DNA from: a virus
Taxonomy: Duplodnaviria > Heunggongvirae > Uroviricota > Caudoviricetes
Strand: one strand, 5' to 3'
Length of the DNA: 37,562 bases
Virus record (IMG/VR): IMGVR_UViG_2534681673_000007
Location: 1 to 37,562 of that record
In this document: piece after piece, positions 24,294 through 36,617 of the stretch
How positions within the stretch are numbered: the stretch's first letter is position 1
Layout of the letters: each line of letters begins with the position of its first letter
Notes under the pieces: model-generated
Database searches by the model: none
What the model saw: only the letters and a program-made list of their open reading frames with translations
What the model was told of the DNA's origin: nothing
Made by a program: the position numbers and the translations under genes

Positions 24294-24563
24294 TCAATGA
24301 GTGCTCATCGATGAATTTTTTTCAGCGCCAATCTCACTCAAAAAAGCAAAACCTTTTGACGTTATATCATTAGCAATCAATCCACCTTCGGCAGATTTGC
24401 TTCGTATAACATCGATAAAACCTATATCAGCAAGATCTGAAATAGCAAAATTAACCTCTTTTGCTGAGAGATGAGGTAATGATGCAGCCTGAATTCTAGA
24501 ATCCTTTGGCTGCAATTCATTCACTCGACGTAGTATTTCAAGATGGATAGAGGTCAGTTTCAT
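24294..24563 (-). CDS. Unknown small cargo protein (89 aa), possibly DNA-binding/regulatory
   Basis: ATG at 24563 with AGGAG 6 nt upstream. AT-rich. Directly downstream of the Q-distal terminator and upstream of the membrane protein. Confidence 0.6.
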   Translation of the reverse strand: MKLTSIHLEILRRVNELQPKDSRIQAASLPHLSAKEVNFAISDLADIGFIDVIRSKSAEGGLIANDITSKGFAFLSEIGAEKNSSMSTH

Positions 24564-24646
24564 AATGTTCTCCTGTTTTTAATGTTGTTTTACAGAAAAC
24601 ATTATAACACATTGATTTTGATGTAGATTGAATAGAAAAAAACCAT

Positions 24647-24669
24647 AAAAAAACCTCGCAATAGCGAGG
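24647..24669 (-). terminator. Rho-independent terminator (CCUCGC-UAUU-GCGAGG plus U7 tract) downstream of Q; candidate tR'
   Basis: Stem 24654-24659/24664-24669; on the minus strand it is followed by TTTTTTTATGGTTTTTTT. Confidence 0.6.
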
Positions 24670-24777
24670 TCGTAAAAATTGTTCAACGATAGATACACAA
24701 GCCCCATCGTTGAGAAAATCTTATCCATATTTTTTGAGAAACACAAGTATTATGTCGTTATCTTCGGCGAAAATCGC

Positions 24778-25530
24778 TTATCTCGTCACCCTTCTCAATT
24801 GTGCTTCAGCGTAAGCTTCCTCCTGCCAGCACTTTGTAACCAGTTTATCAATGACATCTGCATATCCTTTGTACCACTGATAATCCGTCAGGTCTGGTAC
24901 CAGCTTCTGGACATGAAGCCGCGCCAGTGTGGTTGGTAAACGGCTAAACCGGTTTCCATTGCAACGCCCACAAATCTTATAAACAGGCGTGCCATGAAGC
25001 CGGGTTCTTTTTTCATCCAGGACAATACCTTTACCCTTACACCCTCTGCACGCTGTGCTGACTTCTCCCTTACCATGACAATGCTGACATAGTTCCTTCA
25101 CCCACTCTTCCTTGATAACAGACTCCCCGCTTCTGGAGTGTTTCACCACTTCGCGCAATACATTATGAAATCCAGTACCAGCACAATGCTCACAGCGAGC
25201 CTTACTTGCCGCAGACCTGGAATAATCAGCAAAGGCAAAATTCACAAGGTAAGGAATGATCTGTAGCCGGGTTTCTTCACTCAATTTGTTCAATGTCGGG
25301 TTATCCAGTGCCATCGCGTAATTGAGCAGACCTTCAATCGCAAACAGAGGATCCTGAACACCAACTTTTGCCAGGAATAAGGCAAACCCAAGCGGTGCTT
25401 TCGACTGCACCATCCCCTGCGCAGCCATCACATCTGTAATTGTTAAACCACCCGAGCCTGTCGCCGGTGCGTCATCACTCAATTTTGGAGATTTTGGGGA
25501 GTAATATTTTGGTAAGGCTTCAAGGTTCAT
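24778..25530 (-). CDS. Late-gene antitermination protein Q (Qin/phage 82-type)
   Basis: 250-aa ORF with Cys-rich zinc-binding region (CEHCAGTG...CQHCHGKG...CRGCKGKG...CGRCNGN). Position upstream of the lysis genes. Confidence 0.8.
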   Translation of the reverse strand: MNLEALPKYYSPKSPKLSDDAPATGSGGLTITDVMAAQGMVQSKAPLGFALFLAKVGVQDPLFAIEGLLNYAMALDNPTLNKLSEETRLQIIPYLVNFAFADYSRSAASKARCEHCAGTGFHNVLREVVKHSRSGESVIKEEWVKELCQHCHGKGEVSTACRGCKGKGIVLDEKRTRLHGTPVYKICGRCNGNRFSRLPTTLARLHVQKLVPDLTDYQWYKGYADVIDKLVTKCWQEEAYAEAQLRRVTR

Positions 25531-27358: not shown

Positions 27359-27497
27359 TCAGGCGGCTGCACCCGCCGTTTTCTCGTACTTACTGATAGT
27401 GATCTCGACCTTCCCTTCCGGGATAACCGGTCCCCACTCCACCAGCATTCTTTTCACCTGACTGTCGTCTTCCCACACACCCGCGTGGGTCAGGGCG
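27359..27497 (-). pseudogene. rusA: rusA Holliday-junction resolvase, C-terminal fragment displaced by IS insertion
   Basis: Hand translation continuing from the N-terminal fragment across the IS: ALTHAGVWEDDSQVKRMLVEWGPVIPEGKVEITISKYEKTAGAAA, then stop. Confidence 0.7.
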
Positions 27498-27505
27498 TGT
27501 AGTGG

Positions 27506-29005
<1,500 letters not shown>

Positions 29006-29009
<4 letters not shown>

Positions 29010-29332
29010 ACTTTCAGGCCCCTCTCATGTAACCAGTGGGCTGCACGCAGCCTGGCGTTTTCCTCACCGGCAAGCAGTGAGCGGATAATCCCGACCGCCT
29101 CGCTGTCGTCGTCCTTCACCGCGGTATGAAGCGTTATCCCCCGGGCCACGCCACGCTTTATCGTGATGACGCCTTTTTTCTCCAGTGCGCGAAGATGCTC
29201 CACCGCTGCATTCACCGAACGGTATCCCAGCATGGTTGCCACCTCCTGATTGGTTGGCGGGAAGCCACGTTCTTTCTGATAAGAAATCAGCATATCCAGC
29301 ACCTGCTGCTGGCATTGAGTTAACGTCGTCAT
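29006..29332 (-). CDS. LexA N-terminal DNA-binding-domain homologue lacking the S24 peptidase domain
   Basis: Start MTTLTQCQQQVLD at 29332. Close match over about 70 aa to the LexA winged-helix domain (GFPPTNQEVATMLGYRSVNAAVEHLRALEKKGVI). ATGA overlap with rusA. Confidence 0.65.
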
Positions 29333-29826
29333 TAAGCCCCCACGTAATTCCCTGACAGATACCACTCTTCACCCGATGCAGCGCGCTTGCTGCTTTTCCG
29401 TAAGCACCGCTCACGACGCGCCAGAAAATTGTTTCGTTCTGGCTGGGAGTGGCTTTCACGGAATGCCGCCATCCACACGGTTGCAGCACGACGAAATAAG
29501 CCCCTGGACTCCAGTTCTTCCGCCTGGCGGGCCAGGCACAAAATCACCCGCGGGTCGTTAGTGCCGACATAGAAATTGCGCACAGGTCTGGTTTCACGAA
29601 CTGGTTGTGGTTCCGGTTCCTGCGCTCTCTCAGTCAGGCGCGGGAAATGTCTGCGTGTATCTCCTTCACAACGGTGAGCCACACGCCCACTCTGACGTAA
29701 CTTGCTTGCTGACTGCAGAACGCGCTGCCGTGAGTAACCAGCAAAAGCATCCGCAATGTCTCCGGAAGTACACCCCGGATGGGCTTCAATGAATTTCTGA
29801 ACGTCATTTAACAGACTCATGATCAC
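29332..29826 (-). CDS. Hypothetical protein of replication module (164 aa)
   Basis: ORF translationally coupled at both ends to the O-like gene upstream and the LexA-like gene downstream. No recognised motif. Confidence 0.45.
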   Translation of the reverse strand: MIMSLLNDVQKFIEAHPGCTSGDIADAFAGYSRQRVLQSASKLRQSGRVAHRCEGDTRRHFPRLTERAQEPEPQPVRETRPVRNFYVGTNDPRVILCLARQAEELESRGLFRRAATVWMAAFRESHSQPERNNFLARRERCLRKSSKRAASGEEWYLSGNYVGA

Positions 29827-30764
29827 CCCCTGAATCCTGCCGGGATCTGGCTGTAGTCCACGTTGTCGTAACTGGCTTTGAAGTACGGGTCTTCACGTTT
29901 TTCTGTGTGCGTGCTGACGGACGGCGATAAGCGCAGGGAAAGCTCATCCCATTTTTCCCGCAACTTCGACGGGCTGAGCACGTTACGGCACCAGAACGGA
30001 TCGCGGCTGACGCGGCTGTACATCTCGCAGATTTGTTTGTGAGTACGACCATCCTGCACACACATCAGGCGAATTTCGTTTGCCCAGGCTGTCCAGTTAG
30101 GTTCTTTGGGACGAACCACCTCGCCGTCACATTCGGCGGCCTGCTCGTACAGGGCGATGATTTTTTTCCAGAGCCACTGTGCGCAGGTCAAATCATCCTG
30201 CGTTCCCCACTGGCGCTTTTTAGGGCTGAATACAACCGCATCAGGATGGCGAGTTAAAAAATCCTGTTCAGCCGTCTGCGTGTCCGGTTGCGAAGCGTCC
30301 GGACGAGAAGGTTTTTTATCTGACGGATCATGTTTTGATTTTACTGACGGATCCCCGCCAGATTCTGACGGGTGAAAACCCGCTTTTTTGCCAGATTTCG
30401 ACGCATCAAATTTTGACGGGTCAGATTTTGATGCGTCAGATTTTGACGGGTCAGAATCTGACAGTTGAGAAAATGCCGCTGCCTGAAGCTTCGCAACGTT
30501 AAGCTGATAAACATTCGACGCATTGCGGTTACCCTGGCGACGCGCCTTACGCGTTAACCAGCCTTCTGCTTCCAGCCGTGCGATAGCCGTTCTGACGGTA
30601 CTCATCCCCGCGCCAATCTGACGGGCAATGGTTTCAATTGATGGCCAGCACACACCTTCGTCATTACTGAAATCAGCCAGGCGGGCCATAATTGCCACGC
30701 TGGATAACTTCATGCCTGATGCAGCGCAACCATCCCATACATAGCCGGTTAATTTAGTACTCAT
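29823..30764 (-). CDS. Replication initiation protein (O-like, N-terminal HTH, internal iteron-encoded repeat region)
   Basis: 313 aa. N-terminal winged-helix-like region. Central repeats SDPSKSDASKSDPSKFDASKS encoded by DNA iterons. Confidence 0.65.
   Translation of the reverse strand: MSTKLTGYVWDGCAASGMKLSSVAIMARLADFSNDEGVCWPSIETIARQIGAGMSTVRTAIARLEAEGWLTRKARRQGNRNASNVYQLNVAKLQAAAFSQLSDSDPSKSDASKSDPSKFDASKSGKKAGFHPSESGGDPSVKSKHDPSDKKPSRPDASQPDTQTAEQDFLTRHPDAVVFSPKKRQWGTQDDLTCAQWLWKKIIALYEQAAECDGEVVRPKEPNWTAWANEIRLMCVQDGRTHKQICEMYSRVSRDPFWCRNVLSPSKLREKWDELSLRLSPSVSTHTEKREDPYFKASYDNVDYSQIPAGFRG
30319..30455. repeat. Iteron array (about 7 copies of a roughly 15-bp unit, consensus near ATTTTGACGGGTCAG); candidate replication origin inside the initiator gene
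   Basis: Direct repeats read from the sequence: tctgacggatca, ttactgacggatc, ttctgacgggtga, tttcgacgcatca, ttttgacgggtcag, ttttgatgcgtcag, ttttgacgggtcag. Confidence 0.5.
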
Positions 30765-30773
30765 GACCGACCT

Positions 30774-31112
30774 CTATTTCCCTGAATTTACGACGAAACT
30801 GTTCGAGCGGACTGAAGCATTCATGCTCATAACCTTCGCGGAGGTAGATAACCCGTTGTGTTTCCGGCTCCCAACGAATGACTCTGACGGGCACTCCGTA
30901 GTGATCTTTGAACCAGCGGTTAACTTGTCGCAAAGGACTGTCTCCTTCTGCCGGTTGAAATCACCCACAGCCCACTCTGCAAAGCTGTGGGTTACAATTT
31001 CCCTGTCACCTGGTACATTCACTGCATAGCAATATTCCACCTTCGCTTTTCCACCCGGTACAGGAAGCGCAATCAGTTGCGAGCGACGGTAGTGTGTTGT
31101 TAAACTGTTCAT
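30774..31112 (-). CDS. Hypothetical protein (112 aa), translationally coupled in early-right operon
   Basis: ATGA overlap with the upstream gene's stop and ends 9 nt before the O-like start. Composition unremarkable. Confidence 0.4.
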
Positions 31113-31678
31113 GCGTTAGTTTCTCCACAACCAGAAGCAATCGACGCCACGACGCCCGGAGCTGCACACTCGCGGGCGTCATTACTTTCTGAAATGCAAA
31201 AAATTTTGTAGACAAGTGCTGCATGCTCCTGCAGCTTCGAAATTGAGAGATACAGCTCGTCGTTAATTGCTGTCTTCTCATGCGGTTCCACTACACCGTC
31301 TTCGATTGCTGAACGAATCTGTTTTGAATAACTGCCGATCTGTTCAATGACTTCCAGCAGACGCTGGTTAATATCGGCGTTGTCCACATCCTCGACGTCA
31401 GGAAGAGACACAAAGACGCCATTTGCAGACTGCGCCACAGCATCAGCAATGAAGTGAGTGCCACCAGCACGCTGTAAAACCATTGCCCATCCCAGCGGGA
31501 AAATCTGATCGCCATCTGCACGAAGGCGGTTGAATAAAGCGTTTTCTGTTACATCGAGCCAGTCAGCCGCTTCAGCGTAACCACCCGGCAACGCCGCGAT
31601 AGTTTTTCTGACAGCTTTCACGTACCACTCAGGCTGTTTTTCTATTTTCCAGTGATGCTTACCCACGATTAGCCTCAT
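31109..31678 (-). CDS. Hypothetical regulatory protein in the cII position (possibly YdaT-like)
   Basis: 189-aa ORF immediately downstream of the cro-like gene. Family assignment is tentative, from position and my recollection of YdaT-type proteins. Confidence 0.4.
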
Positions 31679-32000: not shown

Positions 32001-32674
32001 ATGAAAACAATCCATGACATCCGGCGGTCTAACGCCAGAAAACTGAGAGATGGTGTTGGCGGGAATTCTTCCTTTGCCACTATGATTGATCGCGAGCCAA
32101 CCCAGACCAGCAGGTTTATGGGAGATGGTGCTACTAAAAATATCGGTGACAGCATGGCACGACACATCGAAAAATGTTTCGACCTGCCTGTCGGATGGCT
32201 CGATCAAGAACACCAGACAACGAACATCACAAAAAACCTGATGTTTCAATCACTAATAAACAAATCACATTAGTCCCTGTCATATCATGGGTACAGGCCG
32301 GAGCATGGAAAGAAGTTGGATATTCTGAGGTTGATTTGAGCACAGCAGAAACGTATCCCTGCCCTGTACCCTGTGGGGAAATGACTTATATCTTGCGGGT
32401 GATAGGTGATTCAATGATTGATGAGTACCGCCCGGGAGACATGATTTTTGTCGATCCTGAAGTACCTGCCTGCCACGGTGACGACGTTATTGCATTGATG
32501 CACGATACAGGTGAAACCACCTTCAAAAGGTTGATAGAAGATGGGACACAGCGTTATCTCAAAGCGTTAAACCCAAACTGGCCTGAGCCTTACATTAAGA
32601 TCAACGGTAATTGCTCTATAATTGGTACAGTGATTTTCTCAGGAAAACCAAGAAGATACAAAATCAAAGCCTAA
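32001..32674 (+). pseudogene. CI-like repressor (N-terminal HTH plus C-terminal LexA-like S24 peptidase domain) with reading frame split at an A6 run (32231-32236)
   Basis: HTH in frame of ORF 32001..32273. S24 domain (PVISWVQAGAW...GDSM...FKRL) in frame of ORF 32174..32674. One extra A would fuse them as ...NITKKPDVSITNKQITLVPVISW... Confidence 0.6.
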
Positions 32675-35226: not shown

Positions 35227-35436
35227 ATGGCAAAACTAATGAAAGCGAGCCAATGGGGACGCCGTGAATTCTCTAATGGCTCAATTCCTGACAACCGAAC
35301 GATAAAACGCTGGGTCGAGAACGGTCTGCTCATGGGGCGTATCGTGGACGGTTCTGTTTTTGTCTGCGAAACAGAAAAATGGGGAGTCGACTCAATGGTT
35401 AGTCAAGCTGTTCGCAAGTTAATAAATGAGGGGTGA
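35227..35436 (+). CDS. xis: Excisionase-like protein
   Basis: 69-aa product, ATG at 35227 with GGAG upstream. Overlaps the integrase start. Motif TIKRWVENGLLMGRIVDGSVFV resembles excisionase-type wHTH. Confidence 0.6.
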   Translation: MAKLMKASQWGRREFSNGSIPDNRTIKRWVENGLLMGRIVDGSVFVCETEKWGVDSMVSQAVRKLINEG

Positions 35437-36617
35437 CCATGGCGGCAAGGCCACGTAAAAAAGAATACAGACATCTTCCTGATTATCTGATTTTTGATAA
35501 AGATCGAGGTGTTTATAAATTCACACTTATTACCGGAAAGAAGAAAAATATAGGTAAGGATAGGGCAATAGCCATTGCAATCGCCAGAGAGTACAACCTG
35601 AGGATGCGACCAGAATTATCTCCATCAGTAGATAATCTTATTAGAGAATCTGGCGGTGTTATCGGAGAAGCAAAACCATTTGCTGAACATGTTGATCACA
35701 TAATGGCCCGAATTATCGAAGACGAACGTCCTTCCCAGAGCACCTTAGATGACTGGAAAAATGACGCTCTACGCGTAAAAGCGTTTTTCGTAAATGTTCC
35801 GGCATGCGATATCGAACTTGAACACGTTAATACCTACATCAACAAATATCATGCCAGCGCATCCGCAAATGTGCAGAACAGAAAGGTCAGCTTTCTTAAA
35901 AAGTTGTTCTCTTATGCGGTCGATGAATCACTAATGCTGGATAACCCGGCCATCAGAAAAAAAATGCGTAGGACTGATGAGAAGAAAAGACGGCGCCTGT
36001 CACTCGAGCATTTTATAGCTATCAGGCAGGCCGCTGCACCATGGTTAAGAACAGCAATGGACCTAGCATTGCAGACTACACATGCACGACTCGAAGTATC
36101 GCGAATCCGTTACTCAATTCGCGAACCTAAAGACGGTATATGTGGATGTGTCTGGTTCGAACAACCACAAAATGGCATATATGGGACGCTTTACATCCAC
36201 AGGCAAAAAGTGCAACAAAAAGAGGCGTCACACGTTGCAATACCAATTGGTGAAGAGTTGAAACGGATAATTGACGATAGCCGAGATAATGTGGCCAGTC
36301 CGTTTGTCGTTCACAGGATCCCAGAACGCCAAGTTAAACGCAGCAAAGAGGTTTCACATCCTACTCAAGTTGCACCGGACTATTTGAGTAGGTCGTTTTC
36401 AGCTACACGGGACAAACTAGGTTTATGCGACAATCTACCAATGGATGAAAGACCAACCTTTCACGAAATTCGAGCACTAGCAGCGCATCTATTCGATCAG
36501 CAGGGTATCGATCCACAAGGACGAATGGCGCACAGCGATGCGAAGTCAACCAAGATCTACACGCAAAATCATATAGATTGGGTTGTCGTTCCCCATGGAG
36601 AAATTAAAGCCAGCTAA
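35433..36617 (+). CDS. int: Tyrosine integrase (lambda Int family)
   Basis: 394 aa. N-terminal arm-binding region similar to lambda Int (HLPDYL...GKDRAIAIAIA). C-terminal catalytic region with PTFHEIRAL...AHSDAKSTKIYTQ (R/H/R/Y pattern). Confidence 0.9.
   Translation: MTMAARPRKKEYRHLPDYLIFDKDRGVYKFTLITGKKKNIGKDRAIAIAIAREYNLRMRPELSPSVDNLIRESGGVIGEAKPFAEHVDHIMARIIEDERPSQSTLDDWKNDALRVKAFFVNVPACDIELEHVNTYINKYHASASANVQNRKVSFLKKLFSYAVDESLMLDNPAIRKKMRRTDEKKRRRLSLEHFIAIRQAAAPWLRTAMDLALQTTHARLEVSRIRYSIREPKDGICGCVWFEQPQNGIYGTLYIHRQKVQQKEASHVAIPIGEELKRIIDDSRDNVASPFVVHRIPERQVKRSKEVSHPTQVAPDYLSRSFSATRDKLGLCDNLPMDERPTFHEIRALAAHLFDQQGIDPQGRMAHSDAKSTKIYTQNHIDWVVVPHGEIKAS

Follow-up and report, generated by a model that had tools for sequence, protein, structure and literature searches.

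A gene in the early right operon of a lambdoid prophage encodes a 108-residue protein in which a LexA-type DNA-binding domain is followed by a short helical hairpin at the place where LexA carries its S24 domain. The reading put forward here, tentatively and at somewhat less than even weight, is that the gene is a sequence-specific regulator captured from a gamma-proteobacterial LexA, and that its product would act in lytic growth as an SOS-box-type repressor insensitive to RecA. The family to which it belongs is not new; it is already annotated, under names that are homology-based only.

The LexA-like gene and its operon

The DNA analyzed (37,562 bp, called the window below) is a lambdoid prophage, and the LexA-like gene lies in its early right operon. 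The features needed for the argument are the following (the strand is given where it matters).

35433–36617: integrase
32001–32674, plus strand: ymfK-type immunity repressor with HTH and S24 domains, the real cI analogue (alignment to ymfK of strain MLI107, ORFs, annotation)
31109–31678, strand opposite to ymfK: CII-like gene
29823–30764, minus strand: O-like replication initiator, HTH_36 (phrog_391, E = 9e-136; Pfam HTH_36)
29332–29826, minus strand: yfdN, a winged helix-turn-helix and PerC-family regulator (Pfam PerC, E = 3.1e-08; phrog_1324 "transcriptional activator"; RefSeq)
29330–29334, minus strand: TAATG, in which the yfdN/PerC stop overlaps the LexA-like start codon (read from the sequence)
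29006–29332, minus strand: LexA-like gene, 108 codons plus stop (ORF; PF01726 and phrog_362 matches)
29006–29009, minus strand: ATGA, in which the rusA start overlaps the LexA-like stop (read from the sequence)
28775–29009, minus strand: 5′ part of rusA (Holliday junction resolvase), cut by an insertion sequence (Pfam RusA and phrog_34 matches, residues 1–87 only)
about 27494–28774, minus strand: IS3-family insertion sequence (ORFs; megablast to an annotated IS3 family transposase)
28372–28719: orfA of the IS3 element
27506–28252: orfB of the IS3 element
24778–25530, strand opposite to ymfK: Q antiterminator

The LexA-like ORF runs on the minus strand from an ATG at 29332–29330 to a stop codon at 29008–29006, and the same 327-bp CDS is annotated in the closest genome, which is 99.6% identical over the 1-kb region. 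The genes of the early strand follow one another in the order cro-like, CII-like, DUF4222, O-like initiator, yfdN, LexA-like gene, rusA, KilA-N, DUF968, and Q; the cro-like gene corresponds to ymfT in the 99.6%-identical relative. A Shine-Dalgarno-like GGGGG run lies just 5′ of the LexA-like start, and neither a promoter-like site nor a convincing minus-strand terminator was found between the immunity region and the LexA-like gene. Together with the TAATG overlap at its start and the ATGA overlap at its stop, this makes the LexA-like gene an early lytic-operon gene, so that any effect of its product is to be expected during induction or infection and not in a quiescent lysogen. Two other assignments were considered and rejected. 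A moron with its own promoter should have a promoter-like site before the gene, and none is present; the role of a CI-type immunity repressor is held by ymfK, 2.7 kb away, and the LexA-like protein has no S24 domain.

State of this prophage copy

The rusA gene of this copy is interrupted: the listed ORF (28740–29009) reads on into the insertion sequence, and intact rusA in relatives is 390 bp long. With the IS3 element in between, KilA-N, DUF968, and Q are separated from the part of the operon that holds the LexA-like gene. A frameshift is present in ymfK as well, with one A missing from an A7 run (the A-run at 32231–32237) when compared with ymfK of MLI107, a 99.6%-identical prophage. If the insertion and the frameshift are both real, the early operon as far as the insertion sequence might be expressed constitutively with the late genes cut off from it; if the ymfK deletion is a homopolymer sequencing error, nothing of the kind follows.

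Domain content and predicted fold

Two parts of the protein can be distinguished.

29126–29332, minus strand: residues 1–69, LexA-type winged helix-turn-helix DNA-binding domain (AlphaFold2 model and Foldseek)
29021–29110, minus strand: residues 75–104, two-helix hairpin (helices 75–88 and 93–103), presumed dimerization element (AlphaFold2 model and conservation)

Residues 1–65 match the whole of the Pfam LexA_DNA_bind profile (PF01726, positions 1–65 of 65; E = 2.9e-19, 69 bits with a cut-off of 23.7), and in a phmmer search of the PDB sequences the best solved relatives are E. coli LexA chains, among them the DNA-binding domain (1lea, E = 7e-16). The AlphaFold2 model, a single chain built on 19 family members, has a mean pLDDT of 82.5 and consists of three helices and a β hairpin, a low-confidence linker (residues 69–75), and two further helices. 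Its predicted winged-helix elements are helices 6–22 and 28–35, the recognition helix 40–52, and the β hairpin 56–58/66–68; Foldseek superimposes the first 68 residues of the model on LexA in the LexA-DNA complex (3jso_B) with an rmsd of 1.1 Å and 50% identity. The 108-residue protein gives no Pfam match to Peptidase_S24. Thus, a first reading made from the sequence only, which had recognized a LexA N-domain without the autopeptidase domain, encoded within the replication/nin operon and translationally coupled there, stands in its structural part: the domain is recovered by profile and by fold, the protein stops at residue 108, and the gene shares codon overlaps with yfdN and rusA.

The NCBIfam LexA equivalog (TIGR00498) aligns over model positions 1–91 of 203 only, with 70.8 bits, which is under its cut-off of 110.95. 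As judged from its sequence, then, the protein should not be regarded as a LexA repressor proper, since the S24 domain with its Ser-Lys dyad, the conserved cleavage site, and the equivalog score of such a protein are all wanting. The PADLOC defense models gave weak generic winged-helix matches only.

Recognition residues

A paper that cites Knegtel 1995 names S39, N41, A42, E44, and E45 as DNA-binding residues of E. coli LexA, and four of these five (S39, N41, A42, and E45) are kept in the phage protein; E44 is replaced by V. Asn41 of LexA reaches the operator via a bridging water. The recognition stretch of the phage protein reads R-S39-V-N41-A42-A43-V44-E45-H46-L47 as compared with R-S-P-N-A-A-E-E-H-L in LexA, so that the gamma-proteobacterial LexA signature (S39, N41, A42, A43, E45, H46, and L47) is preserved, as are R64, G65, and I66 of the wing. 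Every one of the nearest full-length LexAs and of the short relatives has S39, N41, H46, L47, and R64, and almost all have G65 and I66. The S-x-N-[AG]-A-x-E-H motif is kept by most members of the family, a few distant ones having E45 or H46 altered.

Two positions depart from this likeness. Where most of the nearest full-length LexAs have R28 and E44, the phage protein has N and V, and position 44 is never acidic among the aligned family members that have the hairpin. Because of these two replacements the specificity or the affinity may differ from that of LexA. The recognition helix fits a CTGT-like half-site, with affinity or detail possibly altered, and this fit in sequence falls short of proof.

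The C-terminal hairpin

The hairpin, some 30 residues long, follows the flexible linker and stands where LexA has its S24 domain. Its pLDDT is ∼85, that of residues 71–75 less than 50. It is kept in relatives of 42–52% identity, in which A97 and L101 are invariant, and the tail consensus of the family is xEAVxxIRxLLAxExxARxRAxxxLxxxG. The C-terminal 41 residues searched alone against Pfam belong to no family and return a sub-threshold chance match only. In helix 75–88, hydrophobic residues occur at i, i+1, i+3, i+4, i+7, and i+8; this pattern exceeds what a lone hairpin would need and, in the predicted model, suits a dimer interface. Weaker fold matches include winged-helix regulators with C-terminal helical dimerization modules, the BlaI-like Rv1846c and MntR. 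The hairpin could therefore supply the dimerization that LexA obtains from its S24 domain, a role that we infer from a predicted monomer.

The HMMER alignment to LexA runs on through the cleavage-site region and sets A88-G89 opposite A84-G85 of LexA, which raised the possibility that the protein mimics a cleavage site or substrate. That idea was rejected because the Ala-Gly pair is not conserved and the segment is helical: within the PHROG 362 family the position is A-N or V-G in close relatives and unrelated or absent in distant ones, and the segment around A88-G89 is predicted by AlphaFold2 to be helix and not strand-loop.

Family, distribution and selection

Residues 1–108 match positions 1–106 of 106 of phrog_362 (E = 1.4e-59), a family that PHROG labels "transcriptional repressor" and NCBI names "LexA family transcriptional regulator" (WP_000210164-type). 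Of 5426 complete E. coli genomes, 2233 (∼41%) have the gene at an identity of at least 95%, and a single genome may hold as many as four copies. The gene is found in ∼50 phage records, including SfV (orf42), SfII, SfIV, mEp460, cdtI, and others, in all 15 of the Stx2c-converting phage records of the collection, and in three Stx2a phage records; in IMG/VR, contigs with a relative number at least 586. In a survey of Stx phages the gene appears under pham 237, "LexA family transcriptional regulator, pfam01726, 15 phages", with no functional work (PMC8136144), and our literature search found no experiment, binding study, or phenotype study of the PHROG 362 family. Standalone LexA-domain proteins of 65–150 residues are common among predicted viral structures from phages of many hosts, and single-chain tandem versions with two LexA domains also exist.

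In a search of 1.84 billion cluster representatives, relatives of 42–52% identity cover the whole protein including the tail. The distant relatives come from Enterobacter, Cronobacter, Cedecea, and Klebsiella, and in each of the four distant lineages examined the homologue lies in a lambdoid early operon, after replication or Dam-methylase genes and just before rusA-DUF968-Q. The position 5′ of rusA is kept in prophages of Escherichia, Enterobacter, Cronobacter, and Cedecea, and MLI107 and mEp460 share the early-right position of the LexA-like gene before rusA; yfdN is missing from several loci that have the homologue.

Selection was measured on 199 loci representing 101 distinct alleles. Not one of these carries a stop codon in the LexA-like gene, and over the 101 alleles pN/pS comes to 0.11 for the whole gene and 0.27–0.30 in the linker and hairpin (0.27 in the hairpin), with a value of 0.03 in the DNA-binding domain that marks very strong purifying selection there. 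On this pattern of sequence variation the DNA-binding surface is the part guarded by selection.

A protein that is 95–100% identical stands beside two unrelated immunity modules, in 63 of 66 loci with the mEp460-type cI and 56 of 62 with the ymfK-type cI (counted among loci with enough flank), and the gene travels with variable replication modules (the distance from cI to the gene ranges from ∼1.5 to 4.7 kb) and with different Q types too. Since the same protein serves across immunity and Q modules, its target is probably not specific to either. A DNA-binding domain that stays constant across such mosaics points to a constant target, such as host sites or sites common to many elements; a protein that served operators peculiar to each phage should have changed along with them.

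SOS boxes and operator searches

The sequence-only reading had found no candidate SOS boxes in the window, and a scan for CTGT-N8-ACAG agrees: the 37.5-kb window contains no exact site, and its 14 one-mismatch sites compare with 12.1 expected. CTGT/ACAG pairs are not enriched above chance at any spacing from 0 to 20. With a self-built SOS weight matrix made from E. coli boxes, the best score in the window is 11.5, as against 13.3–27.5 for the boxes from which the matrix was built. No SOS box was found in the closest relative of the window prophage either. Whatever SOS-type target this prophage's protein may have must therefore be located outside the prophage, in the rest of the cell.

Perfect SOS boxes abound in related phages: of 80 loci whose gene is near-identical, 43 have at least one strong box, and these recur at the same positions. 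The mEp460-type cI has one (TACTGTATGTAAAAACAGTA) in its linker-coding part, in which the motif is preserved at the level of DNA although the peptide has diverged. In related phages a second box (TACTGTATTTATGAACAGTG) lies ∼50 bp 3′ of rusA, ahead of the KilA-N (antirepressor-like) gene, and another is found at a methyltransferase moron after Q. In a Cedecea/Enterobacter prophage (L008) a box follows a terminator and lies directly upstream of the homologue's operon. This co-occurrence was considered as evidence of functional coupling and was rejected as such, since the gene is just as frequent with the box-free ymfK-type module as with the mEp460-type cI (the counts given above); module linkage within one phage supergroup accounts for the association. 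The SOS boxes of related phages are thus possible targets in those phages and are not evidence for the function of the gene.

A search for shared palindromes (5-mer palindromes, spacings 0–14) in six phage groups with a homologue brought up one notable motif, the SOS box itself, in three of the six groups, that of the window not among them. Near the late promoter, downstream of Q, and in other intergenic regions of the window, the inverted repeats present are immunity operators and terminators only. The late genes of the window prophage have a Q antiterminator.

Proposed role and alternatives

The following course of events would fit these observations. Gene order and codon overlaps suggest that the LexA-like gene would be transcribed with the rest of the early right operon (cro, the CII-like gene, O, yfdN) after induction or infection. 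Its product would dimerize through the hairpin, and the dimer would sit on LexA-type operators, that is, on CTGT-containing SOS boxes. By its sequence it should not be inactivated by RecA*, because it has neither a peptidase domain nor a conserved cleavage site. SOS-controlled promoters would in this way be re-repressed, or held repressed, once host LexA has been destroyed; we infer repression and not activation. The sequence-only reading had likewise suggested that the protein could bind SOS boxes as a non-cleavable repressor, an effect that would belong to induction or infection. Candidate targets are host SOS genes, as well as LexA-controlled antirepressors, morons, and colicins of the phage group or of co-resident elements. 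A more far-reaching form of the proposal, which we regard as doubtful, makes the protein a RecA-proof LexA surrogate produced early in lytic growth that would shut the host SOS response again, silence suicide modules triggered by SOS, colicins, and LexA-dependent antirepressors in rival prophages, and modulate Stx2c/Stx2a induction.

A LexA domain need not have stayed with LexA operators. The protein might instead be a regulator in the manner of gp6 of phage GIL01, whose drifted LexA domain controls a phage or host promoter outside the SOS regulon through an operator of its own. For such a role there is the precedent of gp6 itself, in which a truncated LexA homologue bound to GaCACAnnTGTGaC activates a late promoter, and the R28N and E44V replacements at positions usually conserved in LexA, as well as the frequency of standalone LexA-domain proteins in phages of many hosts, would agree with it. 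We nevertheless think it unlikely: the six phage groups with a homologue share no palindrome but the SOS box, the surroundings of the late promoter and the remaining intergenic regions of the window showed no candidate operator, and the late genes have a Q antiterminator. Moreover, the recognition helix is far closer to that of host LexA than gp6's is, BLASTP gives no alignment to gp6, and the protein is invariant across differing immunity, replication, and Q modules. The recurrent boxes of related phages bring up a further possibility, that the protein is a timer for the SOS-box promoters of its own phage group (cI linker, KilA-N, methyltransferase moron) and closes them once the early genes are on. 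Boxes in 43 of 80 near-identical loci, the conservation of the mEp460-type cI-linker box in DNA while the peptide diverges, the box that precedes KilA-N right after rusA, and that upstream of the homologue's operon in L008 could all be read in this way. A timer is nonetheless quite improbable, given that SOS boxes are wholly absent from the window prophage and its closest relative and that the gene is equally frequent (56 of 62 loci) beside the box-free ymfK-type module, linkage being enough to explain the co-occurrence.

It is very unlikely that the protein acts through protein-protein contacts, whether by engaging RecA* or S24 peptidases as a mimic of the cleavage site or by serving as a partner of RusA or YfdN. 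The alignment of A88-G89 with LexA A84-G85 and the almost constant adjacency to rusA are what suggest such a role; the Ala-Gly pair is, however, unconserved and lies in a segment predicted to be helical, selection is strongest on the DNA-binding domain (pN/pS of 0.03 as against 0.27–0.30 in the tail), and yfdN is absent from several loci with the homologue. The rusA genes of phage 82 and DLP12 are not known to have a LexA-like neighbor, which we also count against such a role. Finally, the protein does look like a truncated LexA, and in this copy its gene lies near an insertion sequence and a frameshifted repressor, so that one might take it for what is left, without function, of a captured lexA gene. 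That explanation is scarcely credible and, as far as sequence variation can tell, is already contradicted by the selection results (a pN/pS of 0.11 for the whole gene, one of 0.03 for the DNA-binding domain, and not a single stop in 199 loci); the tail and the genomic position are, besides, kept across genera at 42–52% identity, and 2233 of the 5426 complete E. coli genomes have the gene.

If the protein does bind SOS boxes and is uncleavable, the SOS response might be weakened or remodeled by a very common prophage gene, with a bearing on antibiotic-induced mutagenesis, on prophage competition, and on the release of Shiga toxin, which is tied to phage induction. Were the RecA-proof surrogate real, it would amount to a widespread and unrecognized layer of control over the SOS response, present in ∼41% of complete E. 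coli genomes. It would also be the second independent phage capture of a host LexA DNA-binding domain after gp6, with a different add-on and possibly the opposite function. If the protein has a private operator instead, it is one more small phage regulator.

Comparison with known systems

The nearest well-studied relative is E. coli LexA (1lea, 1jhh, 3jso), with which the phage protein has in common the S-x-N-A-A-x-E-H-L recognition helix and the R-G-I wing. It differs from LexA in having no S24 peptidase/dimerization domain, no conserved Ala-Gly, and a sub-equivalog score, in the replacement of R28 by N and of E44 by V, and in the helical hairpin that stands in place of the C-terminal domain. 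The genes differ in setting as well, lexA being an autoregulated chromosomal gene and the phage gene a member of an early lytic operon. LexA needs dimerization in order to bind, and the lexA51 mutant is defective through impaired dimerization. The isolated N-terminal domain of LexA reportedly still dimerizes on DNA, and the wings of LexA are said to touch one another there and to set the half-site spacing.

Cleavage of LexA lowers its affinity for DNA and exposes degradation signals; some repression persists with the N-terminal cleavage fragment, which ClpXP clears from the cell. A stabilized N-terminal fragment is reported to go on repressing and to sensitize cells to UV. The LexA fragment 1–84 and LexA(Ind-) resemble the phage protein in that a LexA DNA-binding domain is uncoupled from RecA-stimulated inactivation. 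Unlike fragment 1–84, the phage protein is the product of a dedicated gene, with a conserved C-terminal hairpin of its own, and it does not have the sequence that the fragment exposes for ClpXP.

The closest phage parallel is gp6 of GIL01, a tectivirus of Bacillus thuringiensis; gp6, a truncated LexA homologue of 66 residues, binds GaCACAnnTGTGaC over the −35 region of the late promoter P3 and activates that promoter (PMC6182141). Both proteins are phage-encoded LexA DNA-binding domains without the cleavage domain, and both are products of early genes. In contrast to the LexA-like protein, gp6 has no C-terminal hairpin, derives from Bacillus LexA, binds a non-SOS palindrome, and activates transcription, and GIL01, a tectivirus of linear, plasmid-like form, relies on host LexA for its lysogeny. 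Pairwise BLASTP gives no alignment between the two proteins, and the best PHROG of gp6 is phrog_3502 (E = 1.8e-21), its match to phrog_362 being weak (E = 2.8e-05); the recognition helix of the phage protein studied here is much closer to that of host LexA than gp6's is. Because the two do not align, belong to different PHROGs, and differ in the hairpin, gp6 and the LexA-like protein are, on sequence grounds, independent captures from the LexA proteins of different hosts. Phage-borne LexA DNA-binding domains of this kind are thus already known, and PHROG 362 is a very abundant member of the kind with a C-terminal add-on of its own.

SOS boxes in relatives

In some relatives an SOS box accompanied by promoter-like hexamers lies between rusA and a KilA-N domain gene, and a second arrangement is found in a Cedecea/Enterobacter prophage (loci L008 and L009).

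L123 5006-5025 (also L083, L120, L133 and others): SOS box between rusA and a KilA-N domain gene
L008/L009 5506-5600: terminator and SOS box (ACCTGTACATTCATACAGTA)

The first arrangement suggests that the antirepressor-like KilA-N gene, which lies directly downstream of the LexA-like/rusA pair, would be under LexA control in those relatives. The window's own KilA-N gene has no SOS box, and its N-terminus differs from that of the box-bearing relatives. In the Cedecea/Enterobacter prophage the order is intrinsic terminator, box, ORF, LexA-like homolog, rusA, DUF968 and Q; since the box lies just upstream of this operon, the homolog may itself be transcribed from an SOS-controlled promoter. A divergent RNase-toxin/immunity moron adjoins this SOS-box region.

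SOS boxes are also present inside repressor genes of the type carried by phage mEp460.

L002 (phage mEp460) 9869-9888; L003 836-855; L090-L169: perfect SOS box in mEp460-type cI

The box occupies the linker-coding segment and is present in all IMG/VR loci with an mEp460-type cI (80 of 80); in a 71% identical cI it is kept at the DNA level, while the linker peptide is different. It might act as a roadblock, as an antisense promoter or in some other way.

Neighboring genes in the window

The genes on either side of the LexA-like gene, and the immunity repressor, have the following positions.

29332-29826: yfdN, overlapping the LexA-like gene on its upstream side
28775-29009 and about 27359-27493: the two halves of rusA
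27494-28774: IS3-family insertion sequence (orfA, 28372..28719; orfB, 27506..28252)
about 24294-24700: terminator-like hairpin, then a small gene, downstream of Q
32001-32674: ymfK-type immunity repressor, with an A-run at about 32231-32237

The yfdN protein has an N-terminal winged-helix region and a PerC-family domain; PerC homologs are activators of virulence loci in EPEC and EHEC. Many relatives carry an inserted gene, for a Dam-type methyltransferase, that separates yfdN from the LexA-like gene. On the other side, rusA, which directly follows the LexA-like gene, is split by the IS3-family element, which cuts off KilA-N, DUF968 and Q from the early operon; a comparable arrangement was found in only two of 5426 complete E. 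coli genomes. The small gene beyond Q (about 89 aa, ATG at 24563) has its own promoter-like sequence containing TATAAT and is likely a moron.

The window's ymfK has A6 where the 99.6% identical prophage of strain MLI107 has A7, and the resulting frameshift falls after the HTH domain and ahead of S24; the gene may truly be inactivated, or the shorter run may reflect a homopolymer sequencing error.

Other LexA-domain architectures

In the metagenomic protein P0158 (240 aa, ENA metagenome) a LexA-like DNA-binding domain appears to be joined to a DUF968/HNH-like zinc-finger segment at the C-terminus; this is a true fusion or else an artifact of gene calling that spans neighboring nin-region genes. 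Five others (P0156, P0160, P0164, P0132 and P0133) carry two tandem LexA DNA-binding domains in a single chain that lacks S24; such chains are covalent pseudo-dimers, an alternative way around the missing LexA dimerization domain.
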